Notes: generated from the letters alone by a model not told the origin. A stretch of DNA of 57,418 bases from an uncultured Verrucomicrobiota bacterium (GCA_949295265.1 CASFKR010000006.1:1-57418), one strand, 5' to 3'. Positions 509 to 50,527 are shown, numbered from the stretch's first letter. Made by a program: numbers and translations.

Positions 509-1873
509 TTATTTGCCGATGCAGAAACGGCCAAAGACGTTGTCGAGCAAATCTTCGGTGTAGGAACGGCCGGTAATACTGCCCAGCGTACGGGCGGCCT
601 CGCGGAGATGCGAGGCAGCCGGGACCGCCGCCTCTTCCGCACAGCTGTCATACAGGCTGCAAGCCGCTTCCAACTCTTTCCGCGCCGATTGCAGAAGGGC
701 CGCATGCCGTTCATTGATGGTCACGGCCGGTGCCGAAAGGTGGTCCGCCCGGAGCTGCAGGACGCGCCGCAGCGCGGCAAATAGCGCGTCCATTCCCTGC
801 CCTGTCTGCGCAGACAGCAGGATGCCGTCCTCCGGAACAGCCGCACCCGTGGAGAGCATATCCGCCTTGGTGTAAACCCGGATGACGGGCGGACCGTCGG
901 CGGGAGCCTCCGGTATGGACGCCACTGCGGGTGCGGTCACATCCCGGAGAAAAAGCACCACATCGGCGGACTTCGCCAGTGCGCGGGCACGGGCGATGCC
1001 TTCGCGCTCGATTTCATTGCCGGTGGCACGCAACCCGGCCGTGTCGACCAGCCGCAGCACAATGCCATCCAGAAAGAAGGATTCCTCGATGGAATCGCGC
1101 GTCGTCCCCGGCTGATCCGTGACGATGGCGCGGTTCGTCCCCAGCAACGCATTGAACAGCGTGGATTTTCCGGCATTGGCGGGGCCCGACAGCACGACCA
1201 GGGCTCCCTCGCGCAAGAGGCGTCCCTCGCGGAAGAGCGCCATGAGCGCATCGAGCTCCGCCAGCACCGGTTCGAGGCGCGCATGCAGATGCGGCACCGG
1301 AAGGATGCCCCCGACATCCTCATCGGCGAAATCGAGCGTCGCCTCCAGATCGGCGCAAAGCGCGAGCAAGGCGTCGTAAGCGCCGTTGACGCGTTTGCCC
1401 AGCGCGCCGGAAAGCAGTTCCGCCGCCGCCCGTGCCGCCCGTTCGCTGCGGGCGCCCACCAGTTCCATGACGCCTTCCGCCTGCTCCAGCGACAGGCGTC
1501 CATTCAGGAAGGCGCGGCGCGTAAACTCGCCGGGGCCGGCAGGGGCGGCACCCAGCGCAAGCAGCGCATTCAGCACGCGCGCGGGCACTGCCCGCCCGCC
1601 ATGAACCTGAATTTCGACGACATCCTCGCCCGTGTAGCTGTGCGGTGCGCGGAACATCAGCACAATGGCTTCATCGAGCGGCGAACCGTCCGCGGGATCG
1701 CGCAACCGGTAAAACCGGAAAGTGCCGCCCGCCAGATGGGAGGGCGGCACCGCCGTGCCGGGCGCACAAAGACCGTCCGCCAGCGACCCGGCGGCAGGAC
1801 CCGAAACGCGAATCACCGCCAGCCCCGCAGGACCCGGAGCCGTCGCCAGTGCCGCAATCGTCGTTCCGTCCAT
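509..1873 (-). CDS. mnmE: tRNA modification GTPase MnmE (TrmE)
   Basis: 454-aa ORF. N-terminus TIAALATAPGPAGLAVIRVSGP. G-domain motifs GPANAGKSTLFNALLG, DTAGLR, TKADM. Ends in the family-typical C-terminal CIGK. Confidence 0.95.
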   Translation of the reverse strand: MDGTTIAALATAPGPAGLAVIRVSGPAAGSLADGLCAPGTAVPPSHLAGGTFRFYRLRDPADGSPLDEAIVLMFRAPHSYTGEDVVEIQVHGGRAVPARVLNALLALGAAPAGPGEFTRRAFLNGRLSLEQAEGVMELVGARSERAARAAAELLSGALGKRVNGAYDALLALCADLEATLDFADEDVGGILPVPHLHARLEPVLAELDALMALFREGRLLREGALVVLSGPANAGKSTLFNALLGTNRAIVTDQPGTTRDSIEESFFLDGIVLRLVDTAGLRATGNEIEREGIARARALAKSADVVLFLRDVTAPAVASIPEAPADGPPVIRVYTKADMLSTGAAVPEDGILLSAQTGQGMDALFAALRRVLQLRADHLSAPAVTINERHAALLQSARKELEAACSLYDSCAEEAAVPAASHLREAARTLGSITGRSYTEDLLDNVFGRFCIGK

Positions 1874-1878
1874 GGGCG

Positions 1879-3387
1879 CTACTTCCGGCGAAGGGAGAGC
1901 CCGCCAATGGTCACTTCCCCGCGAAAGGCACCGCTCAACTCCACGTAGACGCCGGCGGCGTCCGGGTCGATAACGGCATCGCTCGTGCCGCGCGCGAGCT
2001 TCCAGCCATCCTGATAGCGCAAGCCGCGCAGCGCGAAGGGGGTCGCCTCGTTGCTGAGATTCTGATCCACGAAATTCCGGAAGAAAAGCGGTTTTTCGCC
2101 TTTGGATTTGTCGACCTGAATGACGTAAATCTGGAAGGAACCTTCAAAATCCTCCGAAAACCGGACGCGGCTCATGCCTTCGATGCGGGTGCCGGGGAAG
2201 CAGGTAATCAGCGGGGAAATGAACCGGGTTTCCAACTCAGGGCGGGAAGAGCGCAACACGAGCCGCTTTTCCGAATCGATGCCGATGGATTGCACGCGGC
2301 GGTCATCGAGGAAAATCCGGTACGGGAAACAGTAGACCGCATCATTTTTCGCGTAGCAGGGCTCGAGCGCGGGCAGCGCATTGCCATCGCTGTTGAGAAT
2401 GGAGACGGCGGTAATGGGCGGCAGTGAATAGGCGGGCAGAGAAACATCGTGCGGAAGCAGGGTCTGCACAGCCACGATGCCCAGCACCAGTGCCGCCAGA
2501 CCGCCCGCGATCAGCAGCGCAACCGTGGTGCGGAGCATCCGGTTGGTGCGCTTGAGGCGCGACAAATCCGCCTCGAGCTCCGCACCGCCCTCCACGCGCG
2601 CCGCCTCATTCGGCTCGAAGTCCATCTCCTCGCGGACCTGAGAGGCACCTTCGCTGACCGCCGCCGTACGCAGCAGTTGCACATCCTCCGCACGAAGCCC
2701 CGGCGCCGCCGCTACGGCAGCCCGGAACGCCGCAAAATCAAAGGGAACCCGGATGAAAAAGACGGCCTGACGCTCTTCGTCGTAAATGACGTACGAAGCG
2801 CGCGGATCGCCATCGCGCGGAGAGCCGACGGACCCCACATTGATGAGGTAGCGCTTGCCTTCCTCCAGCGCAAAATCCTGCGGCGGAATTTCATGCACCA
2901 CGCCGCTGTGCCCGATGATGTAGAGCGCCGCTTTGTGCGTGTGCCCGCAGAAGAGCAACTGCTCCGGACAGGCGGCAAAGGATTCCGCCGCCTCTTCCGG
3001 AGTCGACACGTACCGGAACATCGCCGGGTCCACAAAGTCGCCGTGCGTACAGCGGAAATTCGGACCCTTGATGACGAGCGGGAGCTCCGCAAAAAGCGAT
3101 TGCGCTTTGTCCCCGAGGCGCGATTGCGTCCAGGTGATAACCCGCTGCGCACGGTCGTTGAAGACGGCCGCCGACATGCGCCCGCCCACCACCGCATCGT
3201 GGTTGCCCAGCAACATCGCCGCCGCATGCGAATAGACCGATTTCAGGCACTCCGCCGGTTGCGGACCATACCCGACAATGTCGCCCAGACACAGGATACG
3301 GTCGACCTTCCGAACGGCCAAATCGCTCAGAACAGTATTCCAGGCGGGCAGGTTCCCGTGGATGTCGGACAGGATGGCGTATCGCAT
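1879..3387 (-). CDS. Calcineurin-like metallophosphoesterase fused to one TM helix and a C-terminal domain of about 200 aa, predicted extracytoplasmic
   Basis: MRYAILSDIHGN, LGDIVGYGP, GNHD and GHTH metallophosphoesterase motifs in the first 245 aa or so. Hydrophobic segment TTVALLIAGGLAALVLGIVAV. The C-terminal half is unassigned. Lies 6 nt upstream of mnmE on the same strand. Confidence 0.8.
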   Translation of the reverse strand: MRYAILSDIHGNLPAWNTVLSDLAVRKVDRILCLGDIVGYGPQPAECLKSVYSHAAAMLLGNHDAVVGGRMSAAVFNDRAQRVITWTQSRLGDKAQSLFAELPLVIKGPNFRCTHGDFVDPAMFRYVSTPEEAAESFAACPEQLLFCGHTHKAALYIIGHSGVVHEIPPQDFALEEGKRYLINVGSVGSPRDGDPRASYVIYDEERQAVFFIRVPFDFAAFRAAVAAAPGLRAEDVQLLRTAAVSEGASQVREEMDFEPNEAARVEGGAELEADLSRLKRTNRMLRTTVALLIAGGLAALVLGIVAVQTLLPHDVSLPAYSLPPITAVSILNSDGNALPALEPCYAKNDAVYCFPYRIFLDDRRVQSIGIDSEKRLVLRSSRPELETRFISPLITCFPGTRIEGMSRVRFSEDFEGSFQIYVIQVDKSKGEKPLFFRNFVDQNLSNEATPFALRGLRYQDGWKLARGTSDAVIDPDAAGVYVELSGAFRGEVTIGGLSLRRK

Positions 3388-3515: not shown

Positions 3516-4688
3516 TCAGTGGAGCCAGTTCGGGGAAAGACCCGGGACGATTTCCTCGACGGCGGGGGCGAGCTTCTTCATCTGGTTTTTCAGATTCTGG
3601 AGCGTCGGCGTATTGGGCACATCGTCCATTGAGAGCGGATTCTGCTTTTCCCATTCGCTCCACTTCCGGTACACGGGTTCGTAACGGTTGTTCATCGTCA
3701 CCTGCTCCCCGCGGAGTTTCTCCAGCTTGGTGCGGAGATTGGCGCGGAGATTGCGGTCGCTGATTTCCGTATCCGTCTTGCGGAACAGCTCCATCGTTTT
3801 GTTGATATCCGTCTGGAGGGCGTCGCGCTCCGCCTTGATTCTCCGGTATTCGGTCTCGTGGGGATTGCGATGGCGGGCCCGCATACGCTCGAACAGGTCG
3901 TTGCGCGTCTGTTCGTAGGTGCCGTAGGCTGTGCAGAAATCGATAAGGGCATCGCGCTGTTCGCGGTTGCTCTCGCTGTAGCGCACGCCTTCAAACAGGA
4001 CCATATCGTTCTCGTACACGTACGTGGGCGCCTGCGCCCACAGCCCGTTTTCGAGCGGATACACCGCATACACACGCCCGTGCGGCAGCATCTTGTCGTC
4101 CGCATAGGCGACGGGGGTGCCGCCCTTGATGACGCCGACGGCCGTGCCGTCCGCCGCCATGGAGAAGGAATTGGTCACCACGATGCCCCACGGATAGGGC
4201 GGCTCTTCATTCTGCGCGGCGCGCGGATCGGGCGGCAGTTCCTCCTCCACCACGACCACCGTCACATTGGTCACCACGGACGGCTTCGACGCCTCTTCCG
4301 GAGAAATCGCCTTTTTCGCGGCGGAAACCGCACTCGCCGCCATGGAGGCGAATTTTTCCGCGGCGGAACCGACCACCGATTCGGCGGGCCTCGCCGGTGC
4401 GGGTGCGGGAGGCTGCGGCGAAGCGGGAGCCTCTTCCGCCACCAGTCCGGGAACCGGGTGCGCCTCCGGCAGAGGTGCGGTATCCCGGGAAGCGTGATTC
4501 GTCGGGCCTTCGTCATCCATCGCCATCATCATTTCATTGGTGGATGCCGATGCGCCGGAAAGCCCGACAATCGCGGACAGAATCTTTGTCGCCTCCGGAG
4601 AAACCGAGTGGAGGACGGGCAAGCCGAACCAAATCAGAAGAAAGCCCGCAATGGCCACGATAAATGCGCGCAAAAGGAACTGTGCCAT
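3516..4688 (-). CDS. Hypothetical membrane-anchored protein: N-terminal TM helix, Ala/Pro-rich linker, C-terminal coiled-coil-like region
   Basis: 390-aa ORF with GC3-rich codon usage. N-terminus MAQFLLRAFIVAIAGFLLIWFGL. No family recognised. Confidence 0.6.
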   Translation of the reverse strand: MAQFLLRAFIVAIAGFLLIWFGLPVLHSVSPEATKILSAIVGLSGASASTNEMMMAMDDEGPTNHASRDTAPLPEAHPVPGLVAEEAPASPQPPAPAPARPAESVVGSAAEKFASMAASAVSAAKKAISPEEASKPSVVTNVTVVVVEEELPPDPRAAQNEEPPYPWGIVVTNSFSMAADGTAVGVIKGGTPVAYADDKMLPHGRVYAVYPLENGLWAQAPTYVYENDMVLFEGVRYSESNREQRDALIDFCTAYGTYEQTRNDLFERMRARHRNPHETEYRRIKAERDALQTDINKTMELFRKTDTEISDRNLRANLRTKLEKLRGEQVTMNNRYEPVYRKWSEWEKQNPLSMDDVPNTPTLQNLKNQMKKLAPAVEEIVPGLSPNWLH

Positions 4689-4963
4689 AACAAGCGTGGA
4701 GAAATAATATCAATCGAAATTCTGTCCGGCTGTCCAACCGGGAAGATGCCGGAGCCCGAAAAGCCCCTCCGGGAAGCCTCCAATCCGTAAAACCGGATTC
4801 ACGAAATCATCGGATAATTTCAGGAATTTGTCAAATGATAAACCCTCTCGCGCACGCTTTTCAGACCCTTTTCCGAATGGTGTCTCTGCCATGGTCGACG
4901 CCGCCGACTCCGGCGCCCCGAAACGGCCTCCGCCGGGGCGCCGGATGGTGGCACTTTCCGGCT

Positions 4964-5803
4964 TTATTGATAGACGCGAACGTACTCGATTTCGAAGCGG
5001 GCCGGGAAAATACCCGGGTCAATCCCCTTCTGTCCGCCCCAGGCGCCGCCGATGGCAAGGTTCAGCAGCAGATAATGAGGTTTGCGGAAGGGATACGGAG
5101 AAAACTCGCTCAAATCGCCCGTTTTCGTGTATTCCCCGGCCTTTTTCCCGTCGATAAACAGCCGGAGCGCCGAGGGTTCCCACTCCAGGACGTACGTCAC
5201 AAAACTGTCGAGGGCGGGCGGATGCACGAGCCGACAGCCGGGCGTCATAACATGCCGGACCGGGGCAAGACGCTTTCCCGCTGCCTTGCTCCTCCGTGCG
5301 GAGGGTTTCCCGCCGCCGTCCGGCTTCTGCCCCGGCCCGTGAAGCGTGAAATGGAGCACATCCGGCTCAAACCCAACGTATTCCATGATGTCGATTTCGC
5401 CGCACCGGGGCCAGCCGACCTCGCCGATATCTTCGCCCAGCATCCAGATGGCGGGCCAGACCCCGCGTCCGCCGGGAACGCGCGCCCGGATTTCGAACCG
5501 GCCATACGTCCAGGCATGCTTTCCAAGGGTCGTAATGGCCGCCGAGGTGCACAGCTCCGTTTCGCCGCCATGTTTGTAGGCATCCAAATGCGCCTCGAGG
5601 ATGAGACGTCCGCCCGATACGCGTGCATTTTTGCGGCGTTCCCGGGTGTAGTATTGGAGTTCCTGATTGCGGCAATACCCTTCCTCATAGGTCCAATTCG
5701 CCGGATCGGGCAACCCGGGCTTGTCGAATTCATCATGCCAGACGAGTTTCAGCCGCTTTCCGGTTGAGGAAAGCACGGTTTCGGGCGCGGGTGTCTTTTT
5801 CAT
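4964..5803 (-). CDS. Glycoside hydrolase family 16 (beta-glucanase / laminarinase-like)
   Basis: WPAIWMLG followed by the GEIDIMEYVG catalytic E-x-D-x-x-E signature. Start placed at the ATG at 5803, which is preceded by AGGAGA. The track ORF extends to 5869. No obvious signal peptide. Confidence 0.85.
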   Translation of the reverse strand: MKKTPAPETVLSSTGKRLKLVWHDEFDKPGLPDPANWTYEEGYCRNQELQYYTRERRKNARVSGGRLILEAHLDAYKHGGETELCTSAAITTLGKHAWTYGRFEIRARVPGGRGVWPAIWMLGEDIGEVGWPRCGEIDIMEYVGFEPDVLHFTLHGPGQKPDGGGKPSARRSKAAGKRLAPVRHVMTPGCRLVHPPALDSFVTYVLEWEPSALRLFIDGKKAGEYTKTGDLSEFSPYPFRKPHYLLLNLAIGGAWGGQKGIDPGIFPARFEIEYVRVYQ

Positions 5804-6080
5804 GCGGTTATCTCCTAAGAAACAGAGAGCGGCGATGCCTCCTGAAAATGGGCTCTCCGTTTTCCCCATTGTAGCGAGAGCGGCCGCACCCCTGCAACCC
5901 CATCCGTGTACAGGTTTATCCCGGTTTTTTTCGGGATAATTTATCCAGATTTCTTGAAAGAAGTCTCCTGTAGCCTCTTTTTAAGACTAGATACTCGTGA
6001 ATAGCCCGCCAATACTTTTTCACCCGAAAGTTCGGTAAAATAACTTTGCCGTCGGTCGCTCCAATGGTTGCGGTGACTTC

Positions 6081-6257
6081 GTTCAGGCGGCTCTGCCGCC
6101 GAGAAAAAGTTCTTATTTGACACCTTGGTCGGAACGTTAGTGGAGACTTCAAAACGGGGCTTCGCCCCTCCGTGTGGCTCAATTTTCTTAACTCATCGCG
6201 AGGCTGAGTTTCACAACCTTCCTCCGTGTGGCTCACAAATCCGGGATAAGCCTGGTG
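6081..6257 (+). repeat. 177-nt composite repeat; inverted copy at 45250-45420
   Basis: Aligns end to end with the reverse complement of 45250-45420, mostly identical by eye. Contains TTGACACCTTGGTCGGAACG, the hairpin GGGGCTTCGCCCC, two copies of CTCCGTGTGGCTCA, and CCGGGATAAGCCTGG. Confidence 0.9.
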
Positions 6258-6483: not shown

Positions 6484-6945
6484 TTACTCCTGGAATTTCC
6501 GATTCCAAAAACGGAATGAACAGGCAGTATACCAGTCTACGGAAAATTCACCCGTTGTCCGGTTTAAAATAGCAGCCTCCATCGTTATGTAACAGAAGAC
6601 GCCTTGCGGAGCGGACCATCCGTTTTCAAAGTTTTCAAAGGGGAATGAGATAAGTTTTGTTTCTCCGGGTTCCAGACAGTTGGTCGTCATAACGTAGGAA
6701 AGCCGTTGTAACAGAGCCCCTCTCTCATCGAAAGCATCCGTTCTTGCGGCCACGTCCAGACGGGCTGGAACAGCCAATGAATTGGTCAGAAAGACTGTCC
6801 AAAGAAATGCTTCTCCTTTTTCAATCGAATAGGGAGCGGTAAACGAACATCCGTTTTCAAGGGGCGCATGAACCAAAAGATCCGGCTGCCCAAGACAAAA
6901 TCCAACCGTGAAGAAAATGCAAGCAAGAACAGTCAGCCGTTTCAT
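6484..6945 (-). CDS. Secreted single-domain beta-barrel protein, type B, copy 2 (Transglut_C-like); paralog of 9293-9760
   Basis: Start at the internal Met gives MKRLTVLACIFFTVGFCLGQ, a Sec-type signal peptide. Core motif FTAPYSIEKGEAFLWTVFLTNSLAVPARLDV. Aligns along its length with the 155-aa ORF 9293-9760. AT-rich codon usage unlike the flanks. Confidence 0.8.
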   Translation of the reverse strand: MKRLTVLACIFFTVGFCLGQPDLLVHAPLENGCSFTAPYSIEKGEAFLWTVFLTNSLAVPARLDVAARTDAFDERGALLQRLSYVMTTNCLEPGETKLISFPFENFENGWSAPQGVFCYITMEAAILNRTTGEFSVDWYTACSFRFWNRKFQE

Positions 6946-7057
6946 AACAAATCTGAATTTCAGAAATCCATCAACCAAGGATGCGGCCACTTTCTGGTGC
7001 AGGGGCGTTGTTTTCTCAAACAATTTCATTTCCGCAGCCTGGCCGCCACATATTCTT

Positions 7058-7566
7058 TTATAGAGCCCCTGAATCGCCGTCTTCTGTCAGTGCGGGAAAA
7101 TCGTCCTGTGTAATCGGATTTCCCCGGAGATCCGGCACACGCCATTCGGGAAGAGGAACCACAGCCTGAAAGATTCTCAGGGAGCTGGCGCCTGTCGTCA
7201 GGTTGGTTGTAAAAATAAAAAAATCAATGCAGTCCGGAACCATATTGGACGGCATCCAGTCTTTGAGGGGAAAGACTATTTTTTAAAATCCCCGGCAGCA
7301 AGAAAATTCGTCGTGCATACTATGCCTGCTGAAAAAGAATATGTTGCCCAGGCATTTTTGCCGAGAACGTTGGCATAAATCATTCGTTGGACAGGAAAAT
7401 CCTCTTTGTTGGTTATCGTAAGAGCCCATTCATATGGAACTCCTTTTTCCATCACGCGTGGAGCAAAAAGCCGCACTGCTTCATCGACAACAACCTCACA
7501 GATTTGGACGCCGGATGAAGCAATTGAAAAGAACATCAACGCGATGAATGCGAGCCGTGTTTTCAT
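7058..7566 (-). pseudogene. Secreted beta-barrel protein, type A, copy 2, interrupted by a frameshift at a homopolymer; paralog of 9846-10340
   Basis: ORF 7276-7566 (MKTRLAFIALMFFSIASSG...EWALTITNKEDFPVQ) and ORF 7058-7255 (MPSNMVPDCIDFFIFTTNLTTG...ITQDDFP) match the N- and C-terminal halves of the 9846-10340 protein. Adding one base to the A6 run (plus-strand T6, 7279-7284) restores a single frame reading ..GDFKKIVFPLKDWMPSN.. Confidence 0.8.
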
Positions 7567-7850
7567 CTGTAAAACTCCTTTAAGGATATCCATTTGTTGG
7601 TGTCAGCAAGCTTTGTGTAAATGGAATCTCCGAGTGAATTAAGAACGGTTTTCACATGATTCGTAATCGCTCCATTGACGCTGAAATAATGAACTGGAGC
7701 GGAAACCGCGGCATGGAAATCATTCACATCATACACACAGTTTCCATTCGGTTTCACAGCCGAACGCGGAGCCGGTCCACATTGATATTTCCCGCCACTG
7801 AAAATTTGCGGTGTCCCAATTCGGGGCGCGGCGAACGACCAGCGCATTCG
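7563..7850 (-). pseudogene. Animal-type transglutaminase core, C-terminal remnant (fragment 3)
   Basis: RIGTPQIFSGGKYQCGPAPRSAVKPNG..YDVNDFHAAVSAPVHYFSVNG parallels 10337-10903. It lacks the Cys and His motifs, and the Asp position reads R-I-G-T-P-Q. It begins right after the stop of the upstream gene. Its stop overlaps the next start as ATGA. Confidence 0.75.
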
Positions 7851-7862
7851 TCCCGGTTAATT

Positions 7863-8876
7863 TTACAGTCCCGGACTCAACTGTGATTCCGTTGGAATAG
7901 AGTTTGTGCATTCGGCTACATCAATATCAAGCAGATTCCAATTGAAATTCGTATCTGTACGGTTGATAATATTGATGCTGAACTCCACACAATCGAATGG
8001 AGGCGGATTCGTAGGGTACCAGTTTTCAGCCACAGAAAACGGAAGCAGCCGGGACTCCCCGGGGGCGATATTGTTCGTTGAAATCACTGCGGCCAGACGT
8101 TTGTATGGTCGCCCATAATCATACTTGGCATCAACGCTGGAGCAGACATCCAGCCGAAGCGTTTTGGCTGTTGTATTCGTAATAAAGACACTCCACTCGA
8201 TTGGTTGAAAAATACTTACCCTTGAAGGAACTGTAAAATAACACCCATCGGCAAGCGGCATCACTTTCATTGGCGCATTTGTCTTATCCTTTAAAGAAAG
8301 CGTGTTATTGGAAGCCGCCCGAAGCATTTTTTGAATCAGCGCCGGATTGTCGCGAATCCGGAAGTTGTTCGTGGACGTAATGTAATAACCATCTATCTTT
8401 CCTGATATATGTTTTTTCGTTTCCAGATTAGTGATATCAGCAGTAAATCGGATATCTCTACCTTTCGGAACCCAATGATCCACTTTATAGGACATAACCC
8501 CGGATTCACCGGGAGCCAACAGATTCGTTGTTATATTGTTGTAAAGATTAGCGATTTCCACCCCATTATAGTACCTCCATCGGGCTGTGGTCCTGACAAT
8601 CAGATGAACGGGGAAAGAGAATTGATTGGTTATACCGATAGACCACTCTATCGGCTTCCCTTTGTAAACGATACCGGGTGAGGTGATTGAAAAACCATTG
8701 CCAAGATGCTGCTCACGTGGTCCCGATGACCATTTTACCATCTTAATCCGCCCCTTAACTGGGCTTCGGTTCGTTATACAATTAACAATTTCACTATTCG
8801 AAATTTCATGCGCTTCCTGTCCTTGACAGAAAGTCGCAAATATAAACCAGACAAATGCTAAAATAAAACTTTTCAT
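7863..8876 (-). CDS. Secreted two-domain beta-barrel protein (two tandem Transglut_C-like domains)
   Basis: Signal peptide MKSFILAFVWFIFATFCQGQ. Domain 1 has KGKPIEWSIGITNQFSFPVHLIV. Domain 2 has FQPIEWSVFITNTTAKTLRLDV ... IAPGESRLLPFSVAENWY. Confidence 0.8.
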   Translation of the reverse strand: MKSFILAFVWFIFATFCQGQEAHEISNSEIVNCITNRSPVKGRIKMVKWSSGPREQHLGNGFSITSPGIVYKGKPIEWSIGITNQFSFPVHLIVRTTARWRYYNGVEIANLYNNITTNLLAPGESGVMSYKVDHWVPKGRDIRFTADITNLETKKHISGKIDGYYITSTNNFRIRDNPALIQKMLRAASNNTLSLKDKTNAPMKVMPLADGCYFTVPSRVSIFQPIEWSVFITNTTAKTLRLDVCSSVDAKYDYGRPYKRLAAVISTNNIAPGESRLLPFSVAENWYPTNPPPFDCVEFSINIINRTDTNFNWNLLDIDVAECTNSIPTESQLSPGL

Positions 8877-9133
8877 GGATTAACTGAAGTTTCTTTATTT
8901 TTGTATTCGTCCGTTAAATCTACACCATAAATTGTCCGGGGATACTGAGTCATAATCAAAATTCCAGCCTCATGTTCACCGTTTGTTGATACACATTCAA
9001 CTCCGTTTTCATACTTGTAAACATTGCAGTTAACACCGTTTTTTACGAAACTCCGGGGAGCCGGTCCGCACTGAAACTTACCATCACTGAGTTCCTGTGG
9101 AGTTCCATCATGTGGCACATGGAAAATCTTAAT
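8873..9133 (-). pseudogene. Animal-type transglutaminase core remnant (fragment 2), 5-prime end replaced by a repeat module
   Basis: ..KIFHVPHDGTPQELSDGKFQCGPAPRSFVKNG.. The FHV and DGTPQ motifs are joined by an apparent internal deletion. The upstream reading frame runs into repeat module 9128-9191 and hits an in-frame stop at 9164-9166. The 3-prime end overlaps the next ATG as ATGA. Confidence 0.7.
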
Positions 9134-9191
9134 TTGACACCTTGGTTGGAACGTAGTGGAGATTCAAAACGGGGCTTCGCCATATGGCTCA
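9128..9191 (+). repeat. Hairpin repeat module (copy inside the island)
   Basis: CTTAATTTGACACCTTGGTTGGAACGTAGTGGAGATTCAAAACGGGGCTTCGCCATATGGCTCAA matches 6111-6181 and 331-396. Confidence 0.85.
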
Positions 9192-9292
9192 ATCATCCGG
9201 AAACTTCAATTGAAATTTTCCGGTCAAATTGAGGAAGACGCCCCGTTATTTGATTTTGTACGGAGGGTTCCCAAACCTTACCGTTACATGCC

Positions 9293-9760
9293 TTATCGAT
9301 TGCGGTCCTTGTCCGAAAACGGATTTGGGCGATAGAACGTACTGGCGGAATGCCAGTTAACAGAAAATTCTTCTGTCGTCCGGTTTAAGACGGCTGCTTC
9401 CATAGTCATATACGACATGCGACCGGACGGCGCCGTCCATCCCGGTTCTACTGAAATGAGAAGGCGTTTGAACGCTCCCGGAGCCAGATAATTTGTGGTC
9501 AACCCATACGAAAGCCGAAGAAGCCGTTCTCCGGAATCACCAATCAAATCCGTCCTTGTCAGGACATCCAGCCGGACAGGAATACTGGCTGAATTCGTTA
9601 GAGATACCGACCATTGAACAGGCATTCCTTTACGGACATCATAAGGAGCCGTCAAATAACTGCCGTTCCCAATTGTTGCGTGAACAACAACGTCCGAACG
9701 GCCAAAGCAGAAGACCGCACATGCAATCCAACACAAGGAAATAGCAAATAGAGTTTTCAC
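9293..9760 (-). CDS. Secreted single-domain beta-barrel protein, type B, copy 1 (Transglut_C-like)
   Basis: Signal peptide MKTLFAISLCWIACAVFCFG. Core motif LTAPYDVRKGMPVQWSVSLTNSASIPVRLDV. Paralog of 6484-6945. Confidence 0.8.
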   Translation of the reverse strand: MKTLFAISLCWIACAVFCFGRSDVVVHATIGNGSYLTAPYDVRKGMPVQWSVSLTNSASIPVRLDVLTRTDLIGDSGERLLRLSYGLTTNYLAPGAFKRLLISVEPGWTAPSGRMSYMTMEAAVLNRTTEEFSVNWHSASTFYRPNPFSDKDRNR

Positions 9761-9845
9761 AGCGGCAGGTTTTCGTATGGGGAACGCATGATTCTATCCG
9801 ACAGGAAGATGACATCCAAAACGAAACTTCACATAAAAAGGTCAA

Positions 9846-10340
9846 TCATTCTGGCGGAAAATCGTCTCGTGTGATGGGAGTTCCACGGGTATCCGGTATC
9901 GGCAGCCCTGGAATCGCCGGAAACGAAGTGCCGACGCAGAAAAGATTTCCAGCATGCGACCCTGTTGTCAGATTGGTTGTAAAGATCAAAAATTCAATGG
10001 TATCCGGGGCCCGGTTCGAGGGCATCCAATTCTCATCGAGAGGATTTCGTATCTGTAAACTTTTTCCTGGATCAAGATGATTCGTCACGCAAATATGGCC
10101 AACGGAAAAAGAATACTCACCCCAATAGTGTTTTCCGTTGGCAAAGGCCATAATCCCGATTTGAACAGGAAAATCATTTTTGTTTGTTACAGAAACAGAC
10201 CATTCGCAGGGGGTTCCAGCGGTCATGAAAAAAGGCGTAAACAGCCGGACTTCATCTCCGACCGTAATTTCACAGATTTTTCCCCCATGGCAAAAACCTG
10301 TAAACAGGAGCAACCAGACGATTGGGAAATGCTTTTTCAT
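9846..10340 (-). CDS. Secreted beta-barrel protein, type A, copy 1 (Transglut_C-like)
   Basis: Start placed at MKKHFPIVWLLLFTGFCHGG (ATG at 10338-10340), which overlaps the stop of the upstream transglutaminase fragment as ATGA. Core motif TAGTPCEWSVSVTNKNDFPVQIGI. Confidence 0.8.
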   Translation of the reverse strand: MKKHFPIVWLLLFTGFCHGGKICEITVGDEVRLFTPFFMTAGTPCEWSVSVTNKNDFPVQIGIMAFANGKHYWGEYSFSVGHICVTNHLDPGKSLQIRNPLDENWMPSNRAPDTIEFLIFTTNLTTGSHAGNLFCVGTSFPAIPGLPIPDTRGTPITRDDFPPE

Positions 10341-10903
10341 TGATTGTTCTCCAACAAAGAAAACCATTCATTTGTTCCTGGTTTCTTTGTAATGACATCC
10401 GTACCAAGACACCCGTATACGGTTTCTATCAAATTTGTATTTCCACCATTCACGCTAAAATACTGAACAGGTGCAGAAACTGCAGAAGAAATGAAATCCA
10501 CATCATACTGACCTCCTGCATTGTTTTTCACGAACGAATACGGAGCGGGTCCACATTGATATTTTCCTCCACTAAGAATCTGTGGTGTTCCATCGATAAT
10601 TTGCCAACCATCCCCATTTGTGACATCTGGCCGTGCCATCCAGATTTCCGTCCAGACATGAAAATTCCAGATTTTGTCATACGAATCACCTGTTAAAATC
10701 TGATTATTCGGGAACACGTATAAATCGATTTTTTTGTTTCCATTTTTGTCAACACCGGAATCAAAGCAAGTCACTGGACGGGCGGGCAGTCCGCAAGCTC
10801 TTGCCAGACTTGTTATCATTCCAGCAAAAACCCAGCACTGTCCATATTTGACGGGACTCTCTAAAGAAAGATACTGCTCAAAAATTTCGGCGCTACTTCC
10901 AAT
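10337..10903 (-). pseudogene. Animal-type transglutaminase catalytic core, 5-prime truncated; Cys-His-Asp motifs present but no usable start codon
   Basis: The open frame begins right after a TAA at 10904-10906 and reads IGSSAEIFEQYLSLESPVKYGQCWVFAGMITSLARACGLPARPVT...KIWNFHVWTEIWMARPD...GWQIIDGTPQILSGGKYQCGPAP. There is no ATG, GTG or TTG upstream of the Cys codon (10835-10837). The first Met (10819) lies after the catalytic Cys. The N-terminal sandwich domain and about half of the core are missing. Confidence 0.8.
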
Positions 10904-10914
10904 TTAGTGAAAAA

Positions 10915-10953
10915 GGCCTTGTTTGCCGAAGGAATCGCACCTGATTCGATGCG
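10915..10953 (+). repeat. Repeat module GGCCTTGnTTGCCGAAGnAAnCGCACCTGATTCGATGCG (second copy at 57324-57361)
   Basis: Near-identical 39-nt strings at both sites. This copy abuts the right edge of the AT-rich island. Confidence 0.8.
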
Positions 10954-11003
10954 CCTTTTCCTGAGGTCTACGCCCTTTTACCCGGCAGCAGCAGCGGACG
11001 AAG

Positions 11004-11927
11004 CTAGCGCGACACGGAGGCGGATGAAGGGTCCGGGGAGAAGGAGCGGAGGCGCGCTTCCACGGCGGCAATGACAGATTCCGGAGTACTGGCGCCCGCA
11101 GTGACACCGACACAGGAACAGCCGCGAAAATCATCGGGGCGGAGCTCATCGGCCGTTTCCACGACAATCGTCGGACGCTTCGCGCGGGCAAGCGATGCCA
11201 GGCGCATGGTGTTGGCGCTGGTGGCAGAACCGACGACGACAATGCAGTCGCTTTCGTCCGCCAACTCGCTCAAGGCGCGCTGCCGGGCTTGCGTGGCACC
11301 GCAGATGGTGTTGATGATGTGCGCCGCAGGCCAGCGGCGGCGGATGGCTTCCGCCACCGTGCCGAAAAGCGCTTCGTTTTGCGTCGTCTGCGAAACAAAG
11401 GTGACCATGGGCACGCCGTCGCCGTCCCTCGGCAAGGCGTCCTCAGAGAGGGCGTCGACCGCCTCCGGGGAATCGACAACGCACGCTCCCGGATTGGTGC
11501 AGCACCCCAAAATACCCACCACCTCGGCATGCTGGGGATCGCCCAGCACGAGAACATAGCGCCCGGCGGCAGCGGCTTCGGAGACGATTTTGTGGATGCG
11601 CGCCACATTGGGGCACGTCGCATCAATCAGGCGGAGTCCCAGCCGCTCCAGCCAGCGATACCGGGATGCCGGGATGCCGTGGGCGCGAATCAGGAGTGCG
11701 GCACCTTCGGGCAGCCCTGCGGGGTCATTGCAGACGCGCACGCCGACCGTTGCCAGGCGGGCAATCTCCTGATGGTTGTGAATCAGCGGGCCGTCCGTCC
11801 AGATACCCGGCTCCGGAGTTCCCGCCGAAGCCGCTTCTACAGCCGTCTGTGCGGCTTTTTCCGCCATCTCCACGGCGCGGCGGACGCCCCAGCAAAAGCC
11901 GGCGTTTTTGGCGCGGATGACCTTCAT
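11004..11927 (-). CDS. ispH: 4-hydroxy-3-methylbut-2-enyl diphosphate reductase
   Basis: MKVIRAKNAGFCWGVRRAV, ATCPNV and NTICGAT, the three conserved Cys contexts of IspH/LytB. Confidence 0.93.
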   Translation of the reverse strand: MKVIRAKNAGFCWGVRRAVEMAEKAAQTAVEAASAGTPEPGIWTDGPLIHNHQEIARLATVGVRVCNDPAGLPEGAALLIRAHGIPASRYRWLERLGLRLIDATCPNVARIHKIVSEAAAAGRYVLVLGDPQHAEVVGILGCCTNPGACVVDSPEAVDALSEDALPRDGDGVPMVTFVSQTTQNEALFGTVAEAIRRRWPAAHIINTICGATQARQRALSELADESDCIVVVGSATSANTMRLASLARAKRPTIVVETADELRPDDFRGCSCVGVTAGASTPESVIAAVEARLRSFSPDPSSASVSR

Positions 11928-22015: not shown

Positions 22016-22358
22016 TTTTGTTTCCCGCAGAGACACAGAGGCAAAGAGTTACTTTGAAAAGTTACACACAGAGGCAAAGCCGCGAGAGGGATTAGAAAAT
22101 TTAGCCACACGGAGGGGCGAAGCCCCCTTCTGGAGCCTCCACTTCGTTCCGACCAAGGTATCAAATAAGGACATTTCTCGGCGGCAAGCCGCCTGATACT
22201 AAGCCGTGCAATCGAGCCGAAAACAGGACGAACACGACGCACAGGACGAACACGACAGACAGGACGGCTCGCTTTTGCGCACAAGGAGACCAGCGAAGCA
22301 TTCCCAGGAGCCTCAGTAGCCTCCCCCAGCGACTCCAGATAGGAGCGAAGCCAGCGCA
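22016..22358. repeat. Mosaic intergenic repeat region R7
   Basis: TTTTGTTTCCCGCAGAGACACAGAGG; inverted hairpin module at 22101-22196; inverted GTnCGTCnT array with GCGCAAAAGCGAGCC flank at 22220-22282; CCCAGnAGC-type array at 22301-22343; GCCAGCGCA at 22350-22358. Confidence 0.85.
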
Positions 22359-45249: not shown

Positions 45250-45420
45250 CACCAGGCTTATCCCGGATTTTTGAGCCACACGGAGGAAGGTTGTGAAACT
45301 CAGCCTCGCGATGAGTTAAGATAATTGAGCCACACGGAGTAGCCCCCTTCTAAAGTCTCCACTAACGTTCCGACCAAGGAGTCAAATAAGGACTTTTTCA
45401 CGGCGGCACAGCCGCCTGGA
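45250..45420 (-). repeat. Inverted copy of the 177-nt composite repeat (6081-6257)
   Basis: The reverse complement aligns end to end with 6081-6257. Confidence 0.9.
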
Positions 45421-48384: not shown

Positions 48385-48850
48385 GGAGAATCCAAGAGTA
48401 GTTCTGGGGAGAGCGACGAAAAATGCGGTAAGACGGCGAAAATCAGGCGCTTGCGCCTCTGGAGATGCCAGGAACTCATCCTTTGCGGAAGAAGACCCTT
48501 ACACTATTTCTTGTGTACGTGAATGTATTCTACCACAAAATGTATGGGGTCTTATCAGAAAAATGACGGTTGAATGCAAATTTCTCCAAGTCAGGCTCTG
48601 AAAAGGCTTTCTCCGGAAATTCCGGAATTTCGCGCGGGCGCAAAGACGGTTTTCGGCGTTCCGGAGAATATACTACCCGATTCCGCGCTTGAGAGGGTGT
48701 TCGGTTTTCGTGAGTTATCGGTTCCCTCCCCGTCAGAAAATCCGGGAATTTGGAATTTTTGTCTTGCTTTTTTGAAATAGAGGTGCGATTCTTGTCGCAC
48801 CGCTGAAGGTTCAGTCTTTTTCACACGACACGGATAATCGGAGAGCTTTT

Positions 48851-50527
48851 TTGAACATGTCCACCATACGCACGTTGTTGCTTGATGCCGCCCTGCAATG
48901 TCCCAACCGGACCTTTGTCCGCTGGAAGGCCGACAAAGTCTGGACGGAATGGACGTTTGCGGATTTGCTTTCGCGTGTCCGGTGTGTGGCGGAAACGCTC
49001 GCCGAGATGGATGTAAAGCCTGGCGACCGGTGCGCAATCATGATGGAAAACCGGGCCGAGTGGATGGCCACCTATCTGGGCATCGCCTGCTGCGGCGTTG
49101 TGGCGGTTCCTATCGATGCGCGGCTCCAGGCGATGGAAGTCTCGCACATTTTGCGCGACTCCGAAACGAAGGTCATTTTTGCGACAGGCTCCGTGTGGAC
49201 GCTCCTGCGCGACATTGAATCCGATTTGCGCAAGCTCGAGAGCATCGTCATGCTCGACGATATCGTGACGCAGACCTTCAAGGACAACGGGGTGCGCCAC
49301 TACGATTACAACCGGTTTCTTACGGATATGATTCCGAAAGCGGCCAAGCCGGATTCCTATTTCGACCGTCATGTTCCGGAACCGGAAAACACGGCTTCCA
49401 TCATTTACACCTCGGGAACGACCGGACGCTCCAAAGGCGCGGTGCTCTCCCACCGGAATTTTCTCTCGCAGGTCCGTGCGCTTGAGCAGTTTGAGGTCAC
49501 GCGGGAAGACAATTTCCTGCTGGTGCTGCCGCTCCATCACGGCTTTGCGTTTTCCGCATGCCTGCTGGTGCCGCTGGCGGCGCAGTGTTCCGTCTCCATC
49601 GTGGAAAATCTCCGCACGATTCCGGAAAACATGCGAGAAACGAGTCCCACGGTGCTGATTTCGGTTCCGCTGCTGGCGGAGAAGATGATGAACGCGATTG
49701 AGCGGAAGCTTTCGAAGAATCTCGTCGCAAAATCGCTGATTGCAGCGGGAATGGGTACACTGGTCGGCCGGAAGATCATCGGCAGTCTGGGCGGGCGGCT
49801 GCGGCTGGTCATCTGCGGCGGCGCACCTTCCGACCCCAAGATGCTGCGCGCCTGGAAGCGGCTGGGGATTCCGATTCTCGAAGGCTACGGTCTCACCGAA
49901 ACCTCGCCCATCTGCGCGGTCAATCCGCAACACCACATCCGACTGGGCACCGTGGGTCCTGCGGTTCCGGGCAACGAACTGCGCATTGCCGAGCCCAATG
50001 CGGAAGGCATCGGCGAAATCGAAGTGCGCGGGCCGTGCGTCATGAAGGGCTATTTCCGCAATGAAGCGGCGACCCGCGAGTGTTTCGACGGCGAGTGGTT
50101 CCGCACCGGCGACCTCGGCAAGCTCGACGGCGACGGGTATCTGACGATTACCGGACGCAAGAAGAACCTGATTGTGAACCGCGAGGGCAAGAACATCTAT
50201 CCGGAAGAGGTGGAGAATGTTCTCAATGCCTGTCCGCACATTCTCGAATCGCTCGTACTCGGCTACCACATCCCCGAAGAGGAAAAGGGCGAACACGTGG
50301 GCTGTATTCTCGTGGCCGACGTGGACCGGTTTGAGGAAGAGCGCAAATCCAGCACCGACTCTCCGCTTTCCGATGACCAAATCAAGGAAATCTGCCTCGG
50401 AGAAGTGCGCGCCGCGCTCAAGAAAATCGCCACCTACAAGCATCCGCGCCGGATGCAGGTCGTCTTCCAGCCTCTCCAAAAGACGCAGACCCTCAAAATC
50501 AAGCGCTATCTCTATTCTCTCGATTAG
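48851..50527 (+). CDS. Long-chain fatty acid--CoA ligase (AMP-dependent synthetase family)
   Basis: AMP-binding signature IIYTSGTTGRSKGAVLSHRN, then GYGLTETSP and TGDLGKLDGDGYLTITGRKK. Confidence 0.9.
   Translation: MNMSTIRTLLLDAALQCPNRTFVRWKADKVWTEWTFADLLSRVRCVAETLAEMDVKPGDRCAIMMENRAEWMATYLGIACCGVVAVPIDARLQAMEVSHILRDSETKVIFATGSVWTLLRDIESDLRKLESIVMLDDIVTQTFKDNGVRHYDYNRFLTDMIPKAAKPDSYFDRHVPEPENTASIIYTSGTTGRSKGAVLSHRNFLSQVRALEQFEVTREDNFLLVLPLHHGFAFSACLLVPLAAQCSVSIVENLRTIPENMRETSPTVLISVPLLAEKMMNAIERKLSKNLVAKSLIAAGMGTLVGRKIIGSLGGRLRLVICGGAPSDPKMLRAWKRLGIPILEGYGLTETSPICAVNPQHHIRLGTVGPAVPGNELRIAEPNAEGIGEIEVRGPCVMKGYFRNEAATRECFDGEWFRTGDLGKLDGDGYLTITGRKKNLIVNREGKNIYPEEVENVLNACPHILESLVLGYHIPEEEKGEHVGCILVADVDRFEEERKSSTDSPLSDDQIKEICLGEVRAALKKIATYKHPRRMQVVFQPLQKTQTLKIKRYLYSLD

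Follow-up and report, generated by a model that had tools for sequence, protein, structure and literature searches.

A stretch of 57,418 nucleotides from an uncultured Verrucomicrobiota bacterium (GCA_949295265.1, CASFKR010000006.1:1-57418), referred to as the window, contains at positions 6484-10903 an AT-rich island of three consecutive gene cassettes, in each of which a truncated core of an animal-type transglutaminase (TGase) precedes genes for small secreted proteins. By profile and fold comparison, these small proteins classify as detached homologs of TGase beta-barrel 1 (Pfam Transglut_C). The island is best described as a 5'-deleted, enzyme-less allele of a polymorphic secreted-TGase locus, and this locus, as read from its sequence, behaves as a polymorphic toxin locus with orphan cassettes. 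We infer both a toxic role of the exported TGase and its inhibition in trans by the barrel proteins, which would then be immunity proteins, and give this reading a slightly better than even chance. The island comprises the following features, where HMM stands for hidden Markov model.

10337-10903, minus strand: cassette 1, 5'-truncated TGase core of type CT1 (core profile 96-281; core HMM E 2e-94)
10539-10592, minus strand: conserved 54-nt block, GTPQ..S.GKYQCGPAP, with repeats at 9054-9107 and 7765-7818
9846-10340, minus strand: barrel protein A1, signal peptide and one barrel-1-like domain (barrel HMM E 7e-50)
9293-9760, minus strand: barrel protein B1, signal peptide and one barrel-1-like domain (barrel HMM E 1e-60)
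8873-9133, minus strand: cassette 2, orphan core remnant of type CT2 (core HMM 197-282, E 3e-17)
7863-8876, minus strand: 337-amino acid (aa) protein, signal peptide and two barrel-1-like domains (barrel HMM E 1e-45 and 5e-50)
7563-7850, minus strand: cassette 3, orphan core remnant of type CT3 (core HMM 198-281, E 3e-21), junction 'MRWSFAAPRIGTPQ'
7058-7566, minus strand: barrel protein A3, frameshifted, two open reading frames (ORFs; 7276-7566/7593 and 7058-7255)
6484-6945, minus strand: barrel protein B3, signal peptide and one barrel-1-like domain (barrel HMM E 3e-62)

The GC content of the island is 45.2% versus 62.4% in the rest of the window (z = -11.9), where every other 4.4-kb stretch has at least 58.4%. 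In agreement, the GC content at third codon positions (GC3) is 0.35-0.47 for the island genes and 0.70-0.75 for ispH, an SH3-domain gene, and a GH16 gene. An initial annotation made from the sequence alone had described the island as AT-richer than its flanks and had listed its ORFs; the windowed GC and GC3 computation agrees with the former, and all listed ORFs were recovered on the minus strand at the coordinates given above. Its further statements that the cores are of animal type and truncated, and that the type A gene of cassette 3 is frameshifted, hold equally well, as detailed below.

The core fragment of cassette 1 matched Pfam Transglut_core with an E-value of 8e-13, covering profile positions 50-107 of 108 only. 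Among PDB sequences, it matched factor XIII-A (FXIII-A; E 8.7e-38, residues 295-472), a fish TGase (4e-36), and TG2 (1.7e-31), with 45-50% identity to the FXIII and TG2 cores; the TG2 motif matches given in the initial annotation were correct. All parts of the Cys-His-Asp triad are present (GQCW, NFHVW, and DGTPQ). However complete its triad, the fragment is immediately preceded by an in-frame stop codon (TAA, 10904-10906), and its first ATG, GTG, or TTG codon, at 10819, lies past the catalytic Cys codon. The other two pieces match the core profile only from position 197 or 198 on. The CT2 remnant begins at a degenerate His-motif/DGTPQ block and has an internal 45-nt deletion versus the complete copy (P0002, L104; related sequences are designated by L and P numbers). 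Because fragment 1 could start only past the Cys codon and the remnants are truncated, none of the three pieces can give rise to an active enzyme. Transglut_N is absent from the window. The 54-nt block represents a repeat family (D2, 70-81% identity) with one copy in each of the three cassettes.

Types A and B and both halves of the 337-aa protein form, together with partner proteins from other loci, a single family of domains of approximately 120 residues, and each barrel protein begins with a hydrophobic, signal-peptide-like segment. Core and barrel ORFs overlap at their stop and start codons; for A1, an alternative start exists at 10367. A3 is in register with A1 (spacing 2774 nt, 70-80% nucleotide identity), and its frameshift recurs in the independent assemblies L004 and L007. 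The intact barrel genes of the window allele are thus four: A1, B1, the 337-aa gene, and B3.

The assignment of this family to barrel 1 is based on four independent lines of evidence: matches to fused TGases, partner proteins that pass the Pfam threshold, a profile search of PDB sequences, and fold comparison. First, the barrel-family HMM matched dozens of fused TGases, always 20-50 residues past the core (lowest E-value, 1.6e-9), and the residues matched in L022 and L037 are those named Transglut_C by Pfam. Second, partner proteins at L010, L011, L012, and L070 scored 54, 49, 49, and 27.5 bits to Transglut_C (gathering score 26.6), those at L010, L011, and L012 having two barrels behind a single signal peptide. 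Pfam and NCBIfam searches with the small proteins of the window gave no significant match, only weak ones to Ig-like families; these proteins fall below the PF00927 thresholds when searched directly and are linked to Transglut_C transitively via the partners. An independent barrel-1 HMM, built solely from the metagenome-locus partners L010-L013, L070, and L021, matched five of five barrel domains of the window at 16.8-36.6 bits (A1, 16.8; B1, 30.8; 337-aa protein, 36.6 and 34.5; B3, 27.7). Third, a first barrel profile (A4) found no TGase among PDB sequences, and a profile broadened by the metagenome-locus partner proteins (A6) matched only animal TGases, always in barrel 1 (E 0.0027 for TG3, 0.049 for protein 4.2, and about 0.6-1 for TG2). 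Fourth, an AlphaFold2 model of type B (B1) was all-beta (predicted local distance difference test score, 81), and its top Foldseek TM-scores were to FXIII-A and protein 4.2 (0.57-0.60). The cleanest of these alignments had root mean square deviations of 2.2-3.1 Å over 102-115 columns; arrestin and GH2 Ig domains gave similar E-values at lower TM-scores. A barrel-2 identity was considered for type B and rejected, as the barrel-2 HMM matched no domain of the window and all of them are barrel-1-like. The initial annotation had recognized secreted beta-barrel proteins, and rightly so with regard to signal peptides and beta fold; their identity as detached TGase barrel 1 had escaped it.

A Y-[ND]-G motif of the family aligned to 'VSYNG' of TG2 and 'IIYNG' of TG3. 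By our numbering, the Tyr of 'VSYNG' is Tyr516 of TG2. The equivalent residue is kept in A1 (HYWG) and in both domains of the 337-aa protein (YYNG and YDYG) and is replaced in B1 (GDSG) and B3 (DERG). In TG2, Tyr516 bonds Cys277 and thereby stabilizes the closed, inactive form (PMC11048362).

An exhaustive profile search retrieved full-length relatives. In one group (P0022, P0024-P0031, and P0038; 383 to 3511 aa), Transglut_N plus core form the last domain, and the proteins end at 'D[LI]T.EYK', the core/barrel-1 boundary of animal TGases, with no Transglut_C. Their N-terminal parts consist of signal or transmembrane segments, bacterial TSP3 repeats, and beta-helix repeats. The largest, P0027 (3511 aa), combines a transmembrane or signal segment with Beta_helix, TSP3_bac, Transglut_N, and core; P0038 has a signal peptide, and P0031 and P0025 have TSP3_bac. 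Where a core ORF stops at the end of the core, a barrel gene comes next in 12 of 12 locus types, and core ORFs that are whole at the 3' end are followed by one to three barrel genes with overlapping stop/start codons. Within the species of the window, Transglut_N is present in L104, L001, and L090. A word-indexed protein search with the Transglut_N piece of L001 gave no match, so that the N-terminus of this species' head gene was not seen. Pfam searches of 15 full-length relatives revealed no Rhs, YD, PAAR, VENN, TPS, or LXG domains; FHA repeats and the VENN/PT motif were likewise absent from these 15, and no cdiB was found in the flanks. In the window itself, the only trace of RHS was a sub-threshold 13-bit match on remnant 2 (cut-off 27.9). 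The initial annotation had suggested looking for a full-length homolog with a delivery N-terminus: exported full-length relatives do exist, and a recognized delivery domain was not found in them.

Bacterial relatives with core and barrels fused in one polypeptide also occur (L022, L037, P0033, and P0035). In a neighbor-joining tree, split-type cores have solely split-type cores as nearest neighbors, and their closest fused relatives are bacterial, e.g., L037 (Beta_helix, FlgD_ig); these closest fused relatives are also the proteins with the best barrel-HMM scores. As the nearest relatives in the tree are bacterial, the TGase clade is bacterial rather than a recent animal import; the core phylogeny proposed by the initial annotation thus leaves the animal-type similarity intact and places the clade in bacteria. 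Homolog-bearing records with names are metagenome-assembled genomes of Kiritimatiellia/Kiritimatiellae, and the host bacterium is probably a member of the Kiritimatiellia (Planctomycetes-Verrucomicrobia-Chlamydiae superphylum). Only one related locus was found among 185,579 GTDB species genomes, which indicates that the system is rare or poorly assembled.

Comparison within the species of the window revealed at least four arrangements between ispH and the GH16 gene, with flanks of 98-99% identity. The flanking features and the haplotypes are listed below; in the haplotype maps, rCT is a truncated core remnant of the given type and J a degenerate junction peptide at the 5' end of a remnant.

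11004-11927: ispH
10904-11003, minus strand: host flank, spacer past the ispH stop with terminator-like inverted repeat GAAAAGGC...GCCTTTTTC
4964-5913: GH16 gene adjoining the island
Haplotype 1 (window and five assemblies): [core-CT1 fragment]-A1-B1 / rCT2-337 / J-rCT3-A3-B3
Haplotype 2 (11 assemblies): [last 57 codons of CT2]-337 / J-rCT1-A1-B1 / J-CT4 scrap-A3-B3
Haplotype 3 (L007): long CT1 fragment-A1-B1 / J-CT4 scrap-A3
Haplotype 4 (L104, L001, L107), first part: in-frame Transglut_N + core(CT2) ORF, running off the contig end
Haplotype 4, second part: 337 / J-rCT1-A1-B1 / J-CT4 scrap-A3-B3, followed by the GH16, Metallophos, and MnmE flank

The junction peptide J reads 'MRWSFAAPRIGTPQ' where rCT3 or rCT1 follows and 'KIFHVPHDGTPQ' where the CT4 scrap does; this scrap is a short piece similar to the P0003 core type. 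The 'MRWSFAAPRIGTPQ' junction of cassette 3 is thus also found ahead of CT1, namely in haplotypes 2 and 4 and in L001. L104 is a conspecific sequence with an in-frame Transglut_N + core gene at this very locus; here and in L001, the 337-aa gene directly follows the complete CT2 core. Haplotype 2 looks like haplotype 4 minus its head gene by deletion. The island of the window begins directly past the terminator-like repeat of ispH. In haplotype 2, the flank ends approximately 20 nt earlier; haplotypes 1 and 2 thus differ by about 20 nt in the position of their deletion endpoints, each of which falls just behind this repeat. The junction of ispH with the truncated core was also present in L004, L005, L006, L008, and L009 from other samples at 97.7-99.3% identity.

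Sharp breakpoints were observed at two sites, the Transglut_N/core junction (LFNPWS..DSVYM) and a position between the catalytic His and Asp (WNFHVW...DGTPQ..CGPAP). At the first site, the L021 protein is 100% identical to P0008 through Transglut_N, whereas from 'DSVYMAD' on the identity is 27-65%; in comparison with P0025, identity changes from 85-90% to 37-67%. On the nucleotide level, L001 and L090 share 88-100% identity over Transglut_N versus 43-75% past the Transglut_N/core junction, L090 having the P0003-type core, a third type, behind the same N-terminal part. Inside the L021 ORF, the GC content drops from ~70% to ~50% at the start of the TGase module. At the second site, the remnants begin at the degenerate WNFHVW...DGTPQ block, and haplotype breakpoints lie at the edge of the 54-nt block (10592 and 9056 in the window). 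Mosaic remnants occur as well, e.g., in L007. Barrel genes without a complete cognate core were found in L021, which has three non-identical barrel genes at one locus and no core piece, and in L003, where a lone 97-aa core remnant and its barrel adjoin murC.

Between haplotypes, the 337-aa gene has 4-7 differences per 1014 nt (non-synonymous:synonymous 6:1 and 4:0) and ispH 10 differences per 924 nt (4:6), counts that are too small for an interpretation as dN/dS. The cassettes seem to have been swapped more recently than the flanks diverged. The GH16 gene is only 81-86% identical between haplotypes (L104, L100) and the DNA past it 99%; the divergent allele block therefore reaches past the island on the GH16 side. 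Three of the four near-complete head genes have frameshifting lesions (L001, ~515-545; L107, ~740-800; L090, 858-967), comprising a 31-nt deletion and two tandem duplications of 52 and 55 nt, which represent either recurrent enzyme inactivation or assembly artefacts.

In intact relatives, the head gene thus encodes a large exported protein ending in Transglut_N and the catalytic core, and the barrel is supplied by the next gene or genes, translationally coupled and each with its own signal peptide. A core and its barrel genes move as one cassette, and displaced cassettes persist downstream as orphans with a truncated core and complete barrel genes. On the basis of these observations, the following mode of action is proposed. 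The exported TGase would cross-link or deamidate envelope or surface proteins of competing cells, and the cognate barrel would bind the core in trans and occlude its active site. Such occlusion would copy the closed state of TG2, FXIII, and TG3, in which barrel 1 sets a Tyr on the catalytic Cys. Association of core and barrels as separate chains is known from proteolytically processed TG1 and TG3, the cores and barrels of which remain non-covalently bound after cleavage (PMC13073648). The window allele has lost the enzyme and retains the four barrel genes, which would protect the strain against the TGases of sister strains in the same samples. The more specific proposal that the detached barrel-1 proteins are allele-specific trans inhibitors of secreted animal-type TGase toxins via Tyr-on-Cys capping is tentative, and we place it somewhat below an even chance.

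Several points weigh against a toxin-immunity function. No recognized toxin-delivery domain or secretion-system gene is linked to the system, neither in the relatives nor in the flanks, and a Sec-exported giant protein would still need a route to a periplasmic or surface target of a neighboring cell. The variable C-termini are all one enzyme at 40-60% identity and not unrelated toxin folds, and the capping Tyr is missing in types B1 and B3. Per-column conservation did not differ between split and fused cores, nor was there extra variability in the split ones; an independent signal of diversifying selection is thus not given. The presence of intact barrels in an enzyme-less allele could simply reflect a recent deletion; A3 already has a frameshift, and L104 and L100 have a split B3. 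The loss of the enzyme is read from the window only, and an intact TGase elsewhere in the genome is possible. Finally, the barrels could equally be regulatory or stabilizing subunits, as TG1 and TG3 fragments stay together when active.

The latter idea leads to the main rival explanation, namely that the locus encodes a split housekeeping enzyme for extracellular cross-linking in matrix, surface layer, or adhesion, which we regard as unlikely, albeit to be taken seriously. The barrels would then be co-exported regulatory or stabilizing subunits that act as a pro-domain or chaperone in trans, and the array would have arisen by duplication and decay with no conflict between cells. This would fit the gene order, which equals the domain order of animal TGases, the stop/start overlaps, which suggest stoichiometric co-expression, and the association of core and barrel fragments in active TG1 and TG3 (PMC13073648). 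That delivery domains were not found in the full-length relatives and that split cores show no excess variability would be in line with it, too. However, housekeeping subunits would not be expected to show sharp breakpoints that join identical N-terminal parts to different cores, four or more cassette orders in one species, orphan barrel genes without a complete core (L021, L003), or a compositional break inside an ORF; several non-identical barrel genes per locus, three in L021, do not fit either.

The 5'-truncated copies with common conserved recombination blocks, the mosaic remnants such as those of L007, and the nature of the head gene as a giant surface-type protein with TSP3 and beta-helix repeats would also be compatible with antigenic or phase variation of a surface enzyme-adhesin. 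In this case the truncated cores would be silent cassettes like pilS that feed gene conversion of the expressed head gene, allowing escape from phage or antibody. This is improbable, because every cassette has complete signal-peptide partner genes, which silent cassettes would not need, and because these genes are kept in enzyme-less alleles; moreover, whole cassettes swap together with their partners rather than patches of surface loops. Even less probable is that the barrel proteins are substrates, i.e., small exported Ig-like blocks polymerized by the TGase into fibers or a coat, as might be assumed for several paralogous, small, secreted all-beta proteins next to a cross-linking enzyme. 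Their homology is specifically to the autoinhibitory barrel 1 with the Cys-capping Tyr conserved, every core type has a barrel type of its own as partner, and barrel genes persist without enzyme. Eukaryotic contamination or a chimeric assembly on a bacterial contig, to which the unusually high similarity to animal TGases and the aberrant GC content might point, is ruled out by the recurrence of the same junction in five other independent assemblies and of a second junction type in 11 more, in addition to the bacterial gene organization with overlapping stops/starts and signal peptides and to nearest relatives that are bacterial and contain TSP3_bac, Beta_helix, or FlgD_ig domains.

With regard to mobility, neither recombinase nor mobile-element genes were found within the island, and no recombinase or type VI secretion system (T6SS) genes nearby. 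Rfam and tRNA scans of the window gave no matches, and there is consequently no indication of a tRNA-linked integration site. An interspersed host repeat is located inside the island.

9123-9193: interspersed host repeat of ~85 nt, between B1 and remnant 2

Further copies lie at 6106-6183, just beyond the left edge of the island, at 330-397, and, as reverse complements, at 22099-22166 and 45324-45387. The repeat (...TTGACACCTTGGTCGGAACGTAGTGGAGACTTCAAAACGGGGCTTCGCCCCTCCGTGTGGCTCAAT...) holds a GC hairpin and has no Rfam match; it could be an element of the repetitive extragenic palindromic or miniature inverted-repeat transposable type or a small RNA, and an involvement in the rearrangements is possible. 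Insertion sequence (IS) elements beside cassettes were found only in some relatives (L001, L095, and L010) and not in the island of the window: L001 has an IS5-like element in an orphan, and DDE transposase genes are located at L095:12120-13688, at the distal array end of a haplotype-2 contig, and at L010:3865-6765, past the cassette. The sole other 500-nt stretch of the window with less than 50% GC (48501-49000) is unrelated to the island and lies in the intergenic region between a surface-protein-like gene and an acyl-CoA-synthetase-like gene.

Additional genes were noted downstream of cassettes in relatives. In L002, a core plus barrel cassette is followed by a high-GC ORF (1442-3333) with a complete catalytic domain of an animal-type peptidylarginine deiminase (PAD; PF03068, E 1e-18), lacking a signal peptide, PAD_N, and PAD_M. 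A 233-aa signal-peptide protein, not assigned to a family, overlaps the stop codon of this ORF, and the two may form a second, unrelated enzyme/partner cassette in the same array. Further ORFs downstream of other TGase/barrel cassettes (L091:1399-1872; L092:1127-3973 and 4064-5644) include one with YD/Rhs-like and TSP3 motifs, an 891-aa methyltransferase-like protein with an NPPY motif, and the start of another giant TSP3-repeat protein; they hint at larger conflict-gene neighborhoods.

If the barrels indeed act as inhibitors of TGase toxins, such toxins, listed since 2012 without a partner or immunity family, would have one for the first time. Immunity protein and cis-autoinhibitory domain would then be the same evolutionary module, and immunity proteins could arise in a new way, by detachment of an enzyme's own autoinhibitory domain. 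The domain architecture of animal TGases, and perhaps PADs in view of the L002 cassette, would be linked to bacterial conflict systems, and the loss of a toxin with retention of immunity could be traced over dozens of metagenomic samples of one species. The barrels would furthermore provide natural, diversified inhibitor scaffolds against the active-site face of TG2/FXIII-like enzymes, a group of drug targets in coeliac disease, fibrosis, and thrombosis. The locus is also of relevance to the question of how the four-domain animal TGase originated, as bacteria hold fused and split versions, and the bacterial split site coincides with the site of proteolytic activation of TG1 and TG3.

The closest known systems include the polymorphic toxin systems with orphan toxin/immunity cassettes, Rhs and CdiA-CT/CdiI (PMC3482391; CDI, contact-dependent inhibition). 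Shared features are a large exported protein with a conserved N-terminal part and a replaceable, lower-GC C-terminal enzymatic module, a tightly linked small partner gene downstream, displaced 5'-truncated modules that are kept downstream with intact partner genes, recombination at conserved junction motifs, and strain-to-strain variation. The large exported protein with a C-terminal enzyme is seen in the relatives and not in the window allele. Unlike in Rhs/CDI, known trafficking or pre-toxin domains (Rhs/YD, PAAR, VENN, TPS, LXG, or others) were not seen, nor were CdiB or T6SS genes; the alternative C-termini all belong to the TGase core family, one junction lies within the catalytic domain, and the partner shares homology with one of the enzyme's own domains. 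Of the orphan toxin/immunity layout proposed in the initial annotation, the orphan cassettes are thus borne out by haplotypes, breakpoints, and the L104 gene; the system is neither CDI nor Rhs, the markers of which were not found in the full-length relatives. Zhang, Aravind et al. described in 2012 inactive N-terminal TGase domains of Rhs toxins as well as a Tox-TGase toxin domain (AvrPphE-like, RtxA-like) in proteobacteria, bacteroidetes, and cyanobacteria, without an immunity protein in its table row (PMC3482391). A papain-fold TGase domain with a Cys-His-Asp triad as C-terminal payload of secreted bacterial toxins would be common to both, but the present enzyme is of animal type with Transglut_N (FXIII match, E 1e-37) and has hosts of the Planctomycetes-Verrucomicrobia-Chlamydiae group and a defined partner family.

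With the animal TGases (TG2, TG3, FXIII-A, and protein 4.2), the system shares a 45-50% identical core with the triad, the fold of barrel 1 with its Tyr cap, and, in full-length alleles, Transglut_N, and its core/barrel boundary corresponds to the proteolytic cut site of TG1 and TG3. In contrast to them, the barrels are encoded separately, each with a signal peptide of its own, and in this species all are barrel-1-like, with one to three barrel genes per core; the enzyme forms the C-terminal end of a giant protein exported by bacteria. Islands of acquired interbacterial defense (AID) or orphan-immunity genes are already known from gut Bacteroidales (bioRxiv 10.1101/471110; PMC12247911). Like these, the island combines an array of partner genes with toxin remnants, has no working toxin, is of foreign composition, and varies between strains within a habitat; unlike these, it has no recombinase or mobile-element genes and no T6SS link and is located at the enzyme's own chromosomal locus, where it arose at least partly by deletion of the head gene. 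In the literature searched, no description of animal-type TGase modules with detached Transglut_C partners was found, and no paper mentioned Kiritimatiellae and transglutaminase together. Orphan-immunity arrays as such are known; what is new here is that the partner in a polymorphic system of exported enzymes is the autoinhibitory domain of the enzyme itself.

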